A DNA stretch of 64,000 bases. Source: Guillardia theta CCMP2712 (taxonomy: Eukaryota > Protista > Cryptophyta). Below, one piece after another: positions 51,168 to 64,000 of the stretch (its first letter is position 1; each line of letters opens with the position of its first letter). The translations under genes were made by a program, and so were the position numbers. The notes under the pieces were generated by a model that worked only from the letters and a program-made list of their open reading frames with translations, did no database searches and was not told the origin of the DNA. The DNA lies in NCBI RefSeq assembly GCF_000315625.1, contig NW_005434667.1, positions 343,160-407,159 of the forward strand, in the 5' to 3' direction.

Positions 51168-52049
51168 TCCTCTATTCCTCTGAGAGTATAAGTGGGGTGG
51201 TGATTCGTGACCAATCTGAACAAATAACCCCTTAAAGTTCAGAGGGTTTTGATAGATCTGAACAAATACCCCCTAAAAGTTCAGAGGTCCATCTCTCCGA
51301 ATATGAACAAATATCCCTCATATGTTCCNNNNNNNNNNNNNNNNNNNNNNNNNNNNNNNNNNNNNNNNNNNNNNNNNNNNNNNNNNNNNNNNNNNNNNNN
51401 NNNNNNNNNNNNNNNNNNNNNNNNNNNNNNNNNNNNNNNNNNNNNNNNNNNNNNNNNNNNNNNNNNNNNNNNNNNNNNNNNNNNNNNNNNNNNNNNNNNN
51501 NNNNNNNNNNNNNNNNNNNNNNNNNNNNNNNNNNNNNNNNNNNNNNNNNNNNNNNNNNNNNNNNNNNNNNNNNNNNNNNNNNNNNNNNNNNNNNNNNNNN
51601 NNNNNNNNNNNNNNNNNNNNNNNNNNNNNNNNNNNNNNNNNNNNNNNNNNNNNNNNNNNNNNNNNNNNNNNNNNNNNNNNNNNNNNNNNNNNNNNNNNNN
51701 NNNNNNNNNNNNNNNNNNNNNNNNNNNNNNNNNNNNNNNNNNNNNNNNNNNNNNNNNNNNNNNNNNNNNNNNNNNNNNNNNNNNNNNNNNNNNNNNNNNN
51801 NNNNNNNNNNNNNNNNNNNNNNNNNNNNNNNNNNNNNNNNNNNNNNNNNNNNNNNNNNNNNNNNNNNNNNNNNNNNNNNNNNNNNNNNNNNNNNNNNNNN
51901 NNNNNNNNNNNNNNNNNNNNNNNNNNNNNNNNNNNNNNNNNNNNNNNNNNNNNNNNNNNNNNNNNNNNNNNNNNNNNNNNNNNNNNNNNNNNNNNNNNNN
52001 NNNNNNNNNNNNNNNNNNNNNNNNNNNNNNNNNNNNNNNNNNNNNNNNN

Positions 52050-55000
52050 ACATCCATATCCATAAGGGTGACATACACTCTTCCAGATATTATGAATACA
52101 AACAAGTCTTTAATAACCTTGTTCACTCCATCAATCAAGTCTTCATCGACAAACCACACATCACCCCACACAACTCTATCATCGTTATCACTGGTGATAT
52201 CTTCGATAGCAAAGGCATCGCCTCCAGCTATGGACTCGACCTTTACAAAGACCTTTCTCACTAAACTACTTCAGATCACCTTCGTCATTGTCATCCCAGG
52301 CAACCATGACATCAAACAAGAAGAATCTGAATCACCCTGTTTGGTCTCCGCCATCGCTTTCGATGTCCCCAACCTTCACATCCTCGATACCACCAAAACA
52401 CTACAAATACATAATGTTGGTTTCACCACCGTTTCCGTCAAAGATACACTCGACTTTCAACGCAAGTCCGGCAGACTCTCCACACTCCCACCCTTCCCTA
52501 CTAACTTCCATCAGGATCAGGATCTGGGTATCGATCAGGGTCTTTCCACACCTGAACACGTCGTCGCCCTGTTCCATGGCACCTTCACTGGCACTCTCCT
52601 CTCTGAATCCATCCTCACCCCTGATCTCAATGGCACACCCGATGATCTGCCTAAACCATCCATCTACCCCTTCGAATGGACTAAAGACTTCCAATTCCTC
52701 GTCCTCGGTGATATCCACCTCCGACAACATGGCATCAACAAATTCGGCACACTCTGGGGTTACTCAGGCAGTCTCATACAACAACATCGTAAAGAAGATA
52801 TCATCAATCACGGCTTCTCCATCTGGGACCTACAAAACTCATCCATCACACACCATAACGTCTACAACCCTAAAGGATTCATCAATGTCCTCTTCTCTGA
52901 TGAATCTGACTCTTGGCAAATCAAATACAAAAATCAATATGTCCCTTTAGACTCCCTCATACAACACTCACACTTCCCTAAAGAAGTTATCATCAACATC
53001 CGAGGTAAATACACTCCACAACATAAATCCTCCCTCTTCCAACTCTTACATCAACATTCTATCTCTCACTCCATCCGCGATGATACACTCCTCCCTGAAT
53101 TGCTCCCACAACCTACACTCCATGCCACATCCTCTGGTCCCAATAACCCATTCAATACTCACATCAGTGTCTCTGATCTTAATGATACCTCCTTGCTTCT
53201 TCAATACTTCCACACTCGCACTGAACAACTCCAACTCAATCATAACATGCTACAACGNNNNNNNNNNNNNNNNNNNNNNNNNNNNNNNNNNNNNNNNNNN
53301 NNNNNNNNNNNNNNNNNNNNNNNNNNNNNNNNNNNNNNNNNNNNNNNNNNNNNNNNNCTCCCATCCTACATACACATGTTGAACGCATCAATGCCATCAT
53401 CAATAAATCCATCCTTGATATACAACAATTCCATCCTGAATCAACCCTATCACCCTCCTTCTCCGTCAAATATGTCTCCTGGCACAATATCTGCTGCTAT
53501 GGCTCCCACGAATCCTGGATCAACTTCGACAATCTCGATAATCAGCTCGTCACCATCTCCGCACCTAACGCTTTCGGTAAAAGCACCATCTTCAACGTCA
53601 TCACCATCGCCATCTGGGGAGTTATCGCCTCCGATGAATCCTTGCGCAATATCTCCTCCAGTCTTATCAATGATCACGCCGATACCGCCTCCACCAAGAT
53701 CGTACTACAACTCAATAATTCCGATTTCCTTCGCATACATCGCTCCTTCGCACGCAAAAACCAACAAGAAACTAAAACACTCAAAAAAACCGCTTGCGAT
53801 CTCTTCCTATACAAGGCTTATGAATACCACAAGTTCCTCTCTGACCCTAACTATACACCCGTCCCTTATCTCGTACAAAAGAGCTCCTCTAAGGCCGCTA
53901 ACAAAAAAGACCTTCTCCCCTCCCTCGTTGGCACTCTTAACCAATTCCTACGAACATCCATGATCACACAAACCAATGACTCCAACTTCCTTGACGTTAA
54001 TCACTCCAAACTCACCGAACTTATCGATTCCGCTGCTGGTCTTGATAAACTCACTTCCATCGAATCACTCCTTAAAAACTGCTCCAATAAATACTCTGAT
54101 ATCCTCACACTCCTTCAATCCAATATCAACTCACTCCTTCATGATATCCCCCCTGAACTCTTACAACCACATGGTGATGGTGATGGTGATCTCGATTCTC
54201 ACGCTTCCGGACCATCCGCTGAGCTAGCAGCTTCTAACTCGAATATGGCTGCCCTGTCCGTAGAGTTAAAGGAATTACAGAATCAATATGAATCTATCGA
54301 TATCAATGTTCAACCCATCTTCTCACAGGGACCCTCTCACGTTGATGAATTCCTTGCTATCGATTGGCAACTGAAACTAGACGAATTCAATGCTCAACAC
54401 CCTCACCTCCTTCATGTAGATTACAACGAACTAAATAAACAAAAAAACAACATCCTCTCACAACTCCTTGGCAGTGATCCTAACCTACTATATAAAGAAT
54501 ATCAGAATAACCCTACGCTGCTTGAAACATATAACTCCTTCGTTCAACCACCCATCAAGCCCTGCGAATGGTCCTTCATCGAAGAAGAGGAAAAATCACT
54601 GCCATCCAGCATCCCTCAGCAACCCTCTCATGATCTTGAATCTCTACAGGCATCCCTCAACGATCTTCAACAACAGATCAAGAACCATCATCTCACCAAA
54701 CCCTCTTATACTCCCCCTAACCCCAACTTCTGGACCCTTGAAATTGACCTCGACACTGTCCAAGCACTCATCCTACAATCCTATGGCAGTCTTGATGACT
54801 TCATTGCGCATTGCTCGGTTCTCCCTGTGGTCCATAAACCCACCACCCCACGCCCTGATATCGATGCCATCACCCTCACCAAAGAAGCATTCCTCTCTCG
54901 CATTCAAAAACGTCAGGCAAAGATTGATGACTTCAAGGGTCAACTAAGAGACGCTGATGCTCGCTTCAACGAGGTTGATCAACAGCTTACCTCTCTTAAC

Positions 55001-63800: not shown

Positions 63801-64000
63801 GGTAGATCATCTTGGATTGGTTGATAAGCCTGAATTGTTGATGCTGTTTGTAGATTGCCATGTCAATGACATTCTTCTGAAGACTTGGTAGATGTCTCTT
63901 TATCTTCACCTCAAAATCTGTTACAGGCACCTCTATTATCTTCATTAGGTCTCGACAATATCTCCAATCAAGGTATATTGGGAGTATCACATGGTAAGAC
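60865..64000 (-). CDS. Primase(AEP)-fused UL9-like SF2 helicase / replication origin-binding protein; 5' end beyond the window
   Basis: IDMAIYKQHQQFRLINQSK (AEP/PrimPol C-terminal motif); HeH/Rho-N-like LLNKCKELKVKRYGSLSKGQMIEEL; helicase motifs ASMGFGKT, LIISIQSL, IIIDE, TFTITTGFS, FQSLHRFR; intronless. Confidence 0.8.
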   Translation of the reverse strand, partial: SYHVILPIYLDWRYCRDLMKIIEVPVTDFEVKIKRHLPSLQKNVIDMAIYKQHQQFRLINQSKMIYHNNRYIITPTIKRAVKPRGEPFYKYLVGEYEESNRFSKFDPSILSEKKKTLKIVPIRRVNETLQLNNNVHVLKPDINEHFVMFVIKTIKNDINSIDTYNWKKLILTVTNFLTETSEELFNDLQGSVHIKYEDRIDVFLSLMTEWTHQAYVNHCQYLTWNKVTLLNKCKELKVKRYGSLSKGQMIEELERLCPTMRTDDVEIHRNNIMSLYETKLCSLHGLLQSFREGSPDSMNMTLQEMLSRLNSMLHKSTLQWADPIGSLVMIAKLYDENVVSSWHRHNLPRNTTVSLDYIKERFNVLPYPSFGEKIESDKTFIALSASMGFGKTEYMLQDIMNREDNVLIIVSNINLATTLKTRVNGIMMEKWLQTFSLYNDITVPDRFKKGRLIISIQSLSKLERFDYEYIIIDELDELTNSLVNPTTDERKNKNVREEIVNVLNDLFTYSDLKRVIFAEALFRFSRASVDFLYDLSKRFNKPVDFYHTDDIRFKQRYNLRCDIRRYSKNIDRERYNVSEYFLKNIIEDVKNGHKICGVVVFKCNKQRFEEEFNKHAIKHLIITGDNKEEQKKYIKNPRLISEHNIDVCLHTFTITTGFSEESENYWTKKVILLDEFGSVPNGFIRTNTIFQSLHRFRYVKTDSEGYQNIDIYYKRNPDFEHTYVKFRSQVVSEDYLKHVKHPSKESNCNMEERFKEMFRNLRINNTERDHVQKPYLIECFKYQVNQQPGNRFTEEGCIRTHEEIYCVLKDQEDGVEMVTVKQEINNSDRFDHHSRLLKVYNYNYFDYINNDLKYQKDKEKEQRDAFLVYIYDIYLHRMDVEDYKKIIEKAYKSVNNENINFNIVSSLIQLYHQEKNIIKSINKFLENDKLTRMINRIIDILDIRFHRFDKDEIISGKNIKMHEKEINSMYYEFYIQFKLKKNKDAEKPISKLNFLLSKLFQMELVETGDRKKFTFENTRVNYYDYTMKIAENTLKIIECFNYGG

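Follow-up and report, generated by a model that had tools for sequence, protein, structure and literature searches.

A dispersed element in the Guillardia theta genome combines a UL9-like primase-helicase, a candidate hairpin origin and a giant-virus-type Mre11-Rad50 fusion

The locus and its boundary with the host

Within a 64,000-nucleotide stretch of the genome of the cryptophyte Guillardia theta CCMP2712 (contig NW_005434667.1, positions 343,160 to 407,159; hereafter the window), the DNA changes character at about 51.2 kb, from GC-rich host sequence to AT-richer, apparently intronless sequence encoding a Mre11-Rad50 repair fusion and a primase-helicase replicase. This second part, termed the element here, is the subject of this study. 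An earlier note, made from the letters of the window alone, had pointed out the switch, and two measures of composition bear it out: GC content is 0.549 at 1-51190 versus 0.407 at 52050-64000, and tetranucleotide profiles correlate at 0.76-0.86 among five host segments and at 0.12-0.59 between host and element segments. Coding sequence makes up about 77% of the called element bases, and four of the five N gaps in the window fall inside the element. The following features are referred to below.

47103..51167, minus strand: host WD40 gene (Pfam WD40), likely start codon at 51165-51167, presumably WDR6-like by its motifs
51184..51213: possible tip of the element, 30 bp; a run X6 contig matches 51184-51266 with 1 difference and is unrelated upstream
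51214..51328: AT-rich multicopy terminal-type repeat (repeat family D8), three 32-nt units with short inverted arms, running into the gap
51329..52049: 721-N scaffold gap containing the Mre11 start; a run X6 contig reaches 34 letters into it
52050..56958, plus strand: Mre11-Rad50 (SbcD-SbcC) fusion, with a frame break near 52256 and gaps at 53258-53357 and 55040-55559
52050..60864: domain in which C extremely outnumbers G on the plus strand, up to the hairpin array
57029..57267: tandem repeats of 28-31 bp with a CCATGG core, from a repeat scan
57414..58183, plus strand: orphan open reading frame (ORF) of ~200-260 aa, sharing the silent-site bias
58582..58665: inverted repeat with ~15-bp arms (folding z -3.8)
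58921..59495, minus strand: orphan ORF of ~190 aa, its frame break probably an assembly error
59496..60875: tandem array with a 323-351-bp unit and four hairpins, at 59579, 59930, 60255 and 60578; candidate replication origin
60865..64000, minus strand: replicase (PrimPol-type primase, Rho_N-like domain and UL9/OBP-like superfamily 2 (SF2) helicase), ~155 N-terminal residues lying beyond the window

The element starts 17-47 bp upstream of the likely start codon of the host WD40 gene. The boundary had been placed at 51215. Several contigs carry the repeat from 51203 or 51214 with different flanks, one of them at depth 62; the run X6 contig, in which 62 unrelated letters precede the match and form a different flank, may move the boundary to 51184, and the 30-bp stretch 51184..51213 may be the tip of the element. 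In run X1, a contig of 1272 bp agrees with 50016-51257 at 0 differences, and its depth of 63 is like that of other host contigs. Because it covers both at host-like depth, host gene and repeat are contiguous, and the host-to-repeat part of the junction check that the note had proposed is confirmed by independent short-read contigs. Summed contig depth over the repeat is 1146 versus 63 (a figure not used as a copy number). These observations suggest that the repeat is a terminus present at several loci. The junction sequence 51184-51328 itself folds no better than shuffles (z -0.8). As to the neighboring gene, named WDR6 in the earlier note, its product is a WD40 protein, and the more specific name is a presumption from its motifs; neither WDR6 nor Trm734 was among the matches of this protein in two PDB searches.

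A UL9-like replicase adjoins a hairpin array

The helicase part of the replicase aligns with structures of herpesvirus origin-binding proteins (OBPs) at E 2e-18 in a PDB profile search, and the OBP of herpes simplex virus (HSV) ranked first in a PDB fold search with the replicase model (mean predicted local distance difference test score, pLDDT, 64), so that the OBP-like helicase called in the earlier note stands. Among viral models, OBPs of nucleocytoplasmic large DNA viruses (NCLDVs) ranked first, with that of Pyramimonas orientalis virus among the top matches. The primase part is less distinct, with a weak PrimPol match (E 0.0035) and a model pLDDT below 50. The overall architecture is nevertheless of the PrimPol-UL9/OBP-like type, i.e., an archaeo-eukaryotic primase (AEP) joined to an SF2 helicase closest to UL9.

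Directly adjoining the replicase stop lie the four 72-bp hairpins of the array, each with 22-24-bp arms around a 24-28-nt AT-rich spacer, the first of which folds at z = -12 against 200 shuffles. In copy 3 both arms are altered together, and in copy 4 one arm only. Palindrome richness, noted previously, is evident from the counts of hairpins with stems of at least 12 and loops of at most 60, of which there are 5 in the 12.8-kb element versus 3 in 51 kb of host DNA. Since the HSV-1 origin oriS is likewise described as inverted boxes around an AT-rich spacer (PMC12543377), and both arms covary in one of the hairpins, the array is likely the element's replication origin. The likeness demonstrated to oriS/UL9 covers the SF2 origin-binding fold and inverted arms that flank an AT-rich spacer; the starts of the arms share five letters with Box 1, and their variant with Box 3, a weak resemblance that may be due to chance. 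In the element, unlike in HSV-1, the primase is fused to the helicase, the arms are longer and four units form an array. A 17-nt hairpin pattern had 3 matches in IMG/VR, which showed no wider similarity and were rejected as chance.

The array also marks the end of the strand bias. At four-fold degenerate sites between 52.0 and 59.5 kb we counted 361 C to 20 G on the plus strand, compared with 53:56 in the replicase (Fisher p 2e-26). Ratios of 337:20 in plus-strand genes and 24:0 in the minus-strand ORF show the bias in both gene orientations, and it extends to non-coding DNA (skew -0.31 to -0.50); two host control ORFs have skews of -0.08 and +0.08. Skew that is independent of gene direction is an established sign of replication in bacterial and mitochondrial DNA, and the bias of the element points to replication for this reason. 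None of eight related loci scored is extremely skewed, although most are too AT-rich to show much. New here are the hairpins at the replicase stop and the extreme strand bias that ends at the same place.

The Mre11-Rad50 fusion is related to giant-virus proteins

The presence of a Mre11-Rad50 fusion, as announced in the earlier note, is substantiated by its motifs, by library matches and by its colinearity, piece by piece, with a full-length 1419-aa metagenomic fusion (P0018). The Mre11-like part matches Metallophos (E 0.003) and contains the motifs GDIFD, GNHD and GDIH; the N-terminal Rad50 part matches AAA_23 (E 1e-8) and the SbcC family phrog_77 (E 1e-12); and the C-terminal part keeps the signature and Walker B motifs. 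Contigs bridge the 100-N gap at 53258-53357, and the zinc-hook region, which falls into a gap of the window, is seen in a paralogue (P0017). The gene therefore has the parts of a fusion of the type of Mimivirus R555, namely a phosphoesterase N-terminus, Walker A, a coiled coil with hook, the signature and Walker B, with one frame break remaining. At this break, near 52256, a metagenome contig is one base shorter and contigs of other runs end.

The gene does not resemble eukaryotic nuclear orthologues, being fused and matching SbcC/SbcD-type entries only, and the tree described below contains no eukaryotic sequence. A PDB profile search likewise returned weak matches to SbcCD/Rad50-type entries only. 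With the N-terminal Rad50 part, none of 1417 candidates from a homologue search against longer proteins was confirmed, and there was no match among phages by tblastn. Fusions of this kind are also reported, with a scattered distribution, from plasmids, bacteria and eukaryotes (PMC3175470).

Fusion alignments retrieved 63 IMG/VR loci, 27 of which were placed in a tree together with P0018 and the window; the other 36 were omitted as partial, near-duplicate or distant, the coiled coil was dropped, and no mirusvirus or cellular sequence was included. In this tree the window gene is the sister of 12 giant-virus rows with support 96/99, on a long branch (1.36), with at most 37% identity and an odd composition. 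A taxonomy table covered six of the 12 genome names that were looked up, all six being Imitervirales IM_12, and the four classifiable rows of the 12 in the sister clade are all IM_12 g300. Budvirus, which infects the cryptophyte Rhodomonas and is reported as a member of IM_12, has a fusion of 1478 aa in which inspection by eye shows the same motifs. The nesting of the gene among giant-virus fusions supports giant-virus (NCLDV) ancestry for Mre11-Rad50.

Copies are dispersed and diverged

Besides the window's replicase, on a 1.23-Mb contig, the assembly contains paralogues on a 577-kb and a 7.9-kb contig that are 82-83% identical over the aligned length, and a Mre11-Rad50 paralogue on a 56-kb contig is 80-90% identical. 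The element is thus a dispersed family whose copies, no fewer than three for the replicase and two for Mre11-Rad50, are 80-90% identical. Of 139 run X1 contigs aligned to the locus, 49 are less than 95% identical to it; run X7 yielded 0 aligned contigs. The 54 in-gene differences considered, from a subset of ~1000 ranked by support, include 40 third-position and 37 synonymous changes; because differences are mostly synonymous, the copies appear to have diverged as working genes. Runs from two studies of the organism contain the element, and in run X6, which is labelled a freshwater metagenome, the host gene is ~97% identical and element contigs mostly 90-99%. The different flank of the run X6 contig at 51184-51266 implies that this particular insertion may not be shared with the run X6 strain. 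The freshwater label of this run sits beside a close relative of a species that is listed as marine.

The earlier note counted only two frameshifts in the element, which needs correction: there are three apparent frame breaks, near 52256, 57588 and 59212, the last of which is probably an assembly error because an 813-bp contig aligns there with 1 gap but 0 mismatches, and the extra base is present in the whole of the run X1 depth. The idea of a recent, mildly decayed integration fits the window copy but not the family, which is older, its copies being 10-20% apart in protein, mostly differing at silent sites, and also present in the metagenome strain. Over 47500-64000, other copies in runs X1 and X6 have C/G where the window has T/A ~1.7-1.9 times more often than the reverse, a direction consistent with mild C-to-T decay of the window copy after insertion. 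No RNA data set was listed as containing the sequence, and one RNA run yielded 36 reads, 23 of them at 90-95% identity; its reads covered the host gene no better than the element, which makes it uninformative about expression.

Readable relatives of the replicase lie on small elements

A search of 1.84 billion representatives with the replicase gave 11 matches, one of which was the window's own gene model, leaving 10. A more distant group comprises 16 metagenome loci (L001-L016) with 21-26% GC, none longer than 15.5 kb. These loci also carry small RING, nuclease and EsV-1-7-type genes, some of which are common to giant-virus loci. Scans of IMG/VR with the replicase of the window or of P0011 gave no confirmed relative among the matches listed, and those with other replicase alignments gave two and four weak matches (22-28%), again among the matches listed. 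The replicase was absent from the one 548-kb giant-virus record with a related Mre11-Rad50 that was searched, a comparison that had no positive control, and none of 79 candidate stretches in prokaryote genomes held up. Of the two genes for which the note had recommended phylogenies, Mre11-Rad50 is sister to giant-virus rows, and the readable relatives of the replicase lie on small elements. P0011, a 2246-aa protein from a 12-kb contig, is a replisome in one chain, in which the primase-helicase is joined to an entire family-B polymerase, exonuclease domain included (Pfam E 3e-96).

In one of these loci, L004 (1-15486), a perfect inverted repeat of 1595 bp encloses a likely tyrosine recombinase gene; the locus also has a terminal palindrome of 98 bp and contains no capsid-sized ORF, i.e., no further stop-free stretch of 300-600 aa. 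From its sequence, L004 looks like a whole linear, hairpin-ended, capsid-less element of ~17 kb, and some genes of these small elements recur in giant-virus loci of the IM_12 type. The recombinase-like gene recurs at the opposite end of L003 in matching orientation, and in L004 and L010 the inverted repeat begins at or just past the replicase stop. Proteins 3, 4, 7 and 8 of L004 and the L003 replicase each occur on 10-22 contigs, the longest being 16,365 bp (15,073 bp for the L003 replicase). We take the protein to be a tyrosine recombinase partly from its motifs; it has no match in Pfam, PHROGs, NCBIfam or PDB, nor among phages by tblastn, and is homologous to giant-virus ORFs (E 7e-22 and E 2e-12). 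Homologues are found in the giant-virus records L043 (9953-10960) and L089, in L043 two genes away from Mre11-Rad50. A Walker A scan of L003 and L004 gave no match but missed the replicase's own motif as well, and hence is no control. In L010, a 192-bp, 98% inverted repeat surrounds a RING-type gene and the replicase only (2090-8345), possibly a 6-kb mini-element.

Nature of the element

We tentatively read the segment, at somewhat under an even chance, as one end of an integrated, multicopy, self-replicating element with its own origin, capsid-less or plasmid-/transpoviron-like rather than a whole giant virus. In such an element, the UL9-like helicase would attach to the inverted arms and open the AT-rich spacer between them, as the HSV protein does at oriS, upon which the fused primase would prime and a B-family polymerase, of the host or of the element (PolB is fused to the replicase in P0011), would extend. 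Copying in a fixed direction through the left arm would leave one strand exposed and produce the bias. Mre11-Rad50, which would derive from IM_12-like giant viruses, might process hairpins and DNA ends, by opening or trimming them, in the course of replication, recombination or insertion, and an integrase would lie outside the window; the related SbcCD is reported to cut hairpins (PMC3175470).

A parallel exists with transpovirons, capsid-less linear elements of mimivirids. Like these, the replicase relatives are small and linear; they have inverted repeats, lack a capsid-sized ORF and carry a likely tyrosine recombinase as well as giant-virus-like accessory genes, and their mode of working looks similar. 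All known transpovirons, however, are stated to encode a pPolB-SF1 helicase (PMC11071308), whereas the replicase here is AEP-SF2 and so not of the transpoviron type, and the element is at least 12.8 kb long, carries Mre11-Rad50 and sits in the host chromosome. A further-reaching proposal, less likely than not, is that of an undescribed class of capsid-less linear self-replicating elements, defined by an AEP-UL9 replicase and a palindromic origin, in which free ~17-kb hairpin-ended satellites trade genes with IM_12 viruses and a larger Guillardia member captured Mre11-Rad50, replicates with extreme strand asymmetry and integrated repeatedly. Neither this element nor hairpin-ended AEP-UL9 elements in general turned up in a search of the openly available literature, although large surveys may already list the region.

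Several points weigh against a capsid-less, self-replicating element. With no more than 12.8 kb at one end in view, a capsid module may follow further downstream. No capsid gene is visible among the window ORFs by Pfam, PHROGs and NCBIfam, as the earlier note had remarked, but these scans are weak, since PHROGs also missed the probable capsid of a Polinton-like virus (PLV), L085, taken for one from its likeness to such capsids. The closest replicase relatives, P0003 (33%) and P0004 (32%), have no readable context, those on small elements are only 24-28% identical, and Mre11-Rad50 occurs in none of the 16 small-element replicase loci. No short-read contig bridges the gap at 51329-52049, and the junction repeat is without strand skew (-0.05); the link from repeat to Mre11 consequently rests on the scaffold, and it is this part of the junction check that did not come through. 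Across the array the skew falls to zero without reversal, so that no simple bidirectional origin is established, and a long terminal arm of 9 kb with its own history is a possible alternative account of the bias. Finally, mirusvirus capsid genes (PMC10827195), a Mimiviridae-type VLTF3 and three PLVs have been reported from the G. theta assembly. Because the rest of the element lies outside the window, readings as a mirusvirus, an IM_12 giant virus or a PLV keep their place.

The first of these, to which we assign a minor share of the probability, makes the segment part of an endogenous mirusvirus of clade E03, a large herpes-related virus with a UL9-like initiator and an oriS-like origin that acquired an IM_12-type Mre11-Rad50. 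The three cryptophyte assemblies for which Zhao et al. give 18 E03 capsid homologues include that of G. theta, the major capsid protein, Triplex2 and maturation protease being scored present (PMC10827195); the host species is thus the same, the multicopy state fits, and a herpes-like initiator, with an HSV protein as the best PDB match of the helicase, would suit. Yet the window ORFs contain no mirusvirus marker (the libraries may lack such models), no common gene is demonstrated, the readable replicase relatives sit on small elements, and the published account of E03 gives, in the part available, no scaffold names that would link it to the element (PMC10827195), just as our tree has no mirusvirus sequence. 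Unlikely, and ranked behind E03, is the terminal region of an endogenous Budvirus-like IM_12 virus that was inserted several times or duplicated, i.e., a giant endogenous viral element. The Mre11-Rad50 tree (sister to 12 rows at 96/99, the four classifiable ones IM_12 g300), the 1478-aa Budvirus fusion from a cryptophyte virus, the OBP-type PrimPol-helicase fold shared with NCLDVs, including Pyramimonas orientalis virus among the top fold matches, the Mimiviridae-type VLTF3 reported in G. theta and the intronless, AT-richer insert all speak for it. However, the Mre11-Rad50 branch is long (1.36), with at most 37% identity and odd composition; the window, showing one end, holds none of the NCLDV core genes (double jelly-roll capsid, A32, PolB, VLTF3, D5) among its ORFs; the replicase lineage was not found in the giant-virus records searched, including the 548-kb one, beyond weak 22-28% matches among those listed in IMG/VR; and extreme skew, absent from the three giant-virus loci scored, and dispersed copies with a common terminus set the element apart. 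The interpretation in the note survives in part: the junction contig, the multicopy family and the Mre11-Rad50 tree support a foreign, virus-derived, integrated segment, and support for a giant virus is confined to the repair gene.

More improbable is a large PLV with an AEP-SF2 replicase whose capsid module lies beyond 64 kb. PLVs are described as numerous in cryptophytes, and 20 Rhodomonas PLVs of cluster C2, which includes G. theta elements, have a primase-SF2 replicase (PMC12220804); architecture, cryptophyte host and multicopy integration are shared. In addition, the top Atlas cluster for the replicase is mostly Preplasmiviricota where the phylum is known, distant AEP-OBP genes are located on 17-29-kb viral contigs, and replicase modules bracketed by terminal inverted repeats have been reported (10.64898/2026.10.13.758929). 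Against this, no major or minor capsid, packaging ATPase or integrase gene was seen in the window, by libraries that missed a probable PLV capsid; Mre11, Rad50 and SbcC have 0 occurrences in the text and supplements of PMC12220804 as available; the three G. theta PLVs described carry, as far as reported, AEP-SF3 or other replicases; and a 9-kb arm with three genes leaves little room in a PLV of 14-40 kb. We give very little credence to the coding part being foreign to this locus through a scaffold misjoin across the gap, or free or contaminating DNA. The unbridged 721-N gap, the four gaps in the element and a junction repeat without the arm's skew would fit, but the 1272-bp contig joins host and repeat at 0 differences, another contig, of 577 kb, carries a paralogue, and the element recurs in the runs of two studies as well as, together with the host gene, in the metagenome; moreover, an error at one gap would not make the family non-integrated.

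On our preferred interpretation as an integrated self-replicating element, the segment would add a variant, whose origin and initiator can be tested as a pair, to the endogenous elements derived from DNA viruses. It would connect a model cryptophyte with genes flowing from IM_12 giant viruses, a family that infects Rhodomonas, place a compact initiator-origin pair related to herpesvirus UL9/oriS outside the herpesviruses, and point to a family of small hairpin-ended metagenomic elements that capsid-based surveys would miss. Were capsid genes present in the rest of the element, the segment would instead be the replication module of uncharacterised cryptophyte mirusviruses or of an unusual PLV.

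Other features of the window

Neither orphan ORF has a Pfam, PHROG or NCBIfam match, nor a match among the ORFs of loci L001-L079. The structure model of 57414..58183 was unusable (pLDDT 36), and the start of 58921..59495 is F-box-like by its motif. At 57368-57412, the first 45 bases after a gap mismatch independent contigs, resemble a cloning-vector polylinker and are probably an untrimmed read end. In the host part, a 12.4-kb stop-free stretch at 22447-34881 (minus strand) corresponds to a 4145-aa ORF of host-like composition with a C-terminal hydrophobic segment, which has no Pfam match and, near residues 3050-3165, matches PHROG virion-structural families (E 4e-15).

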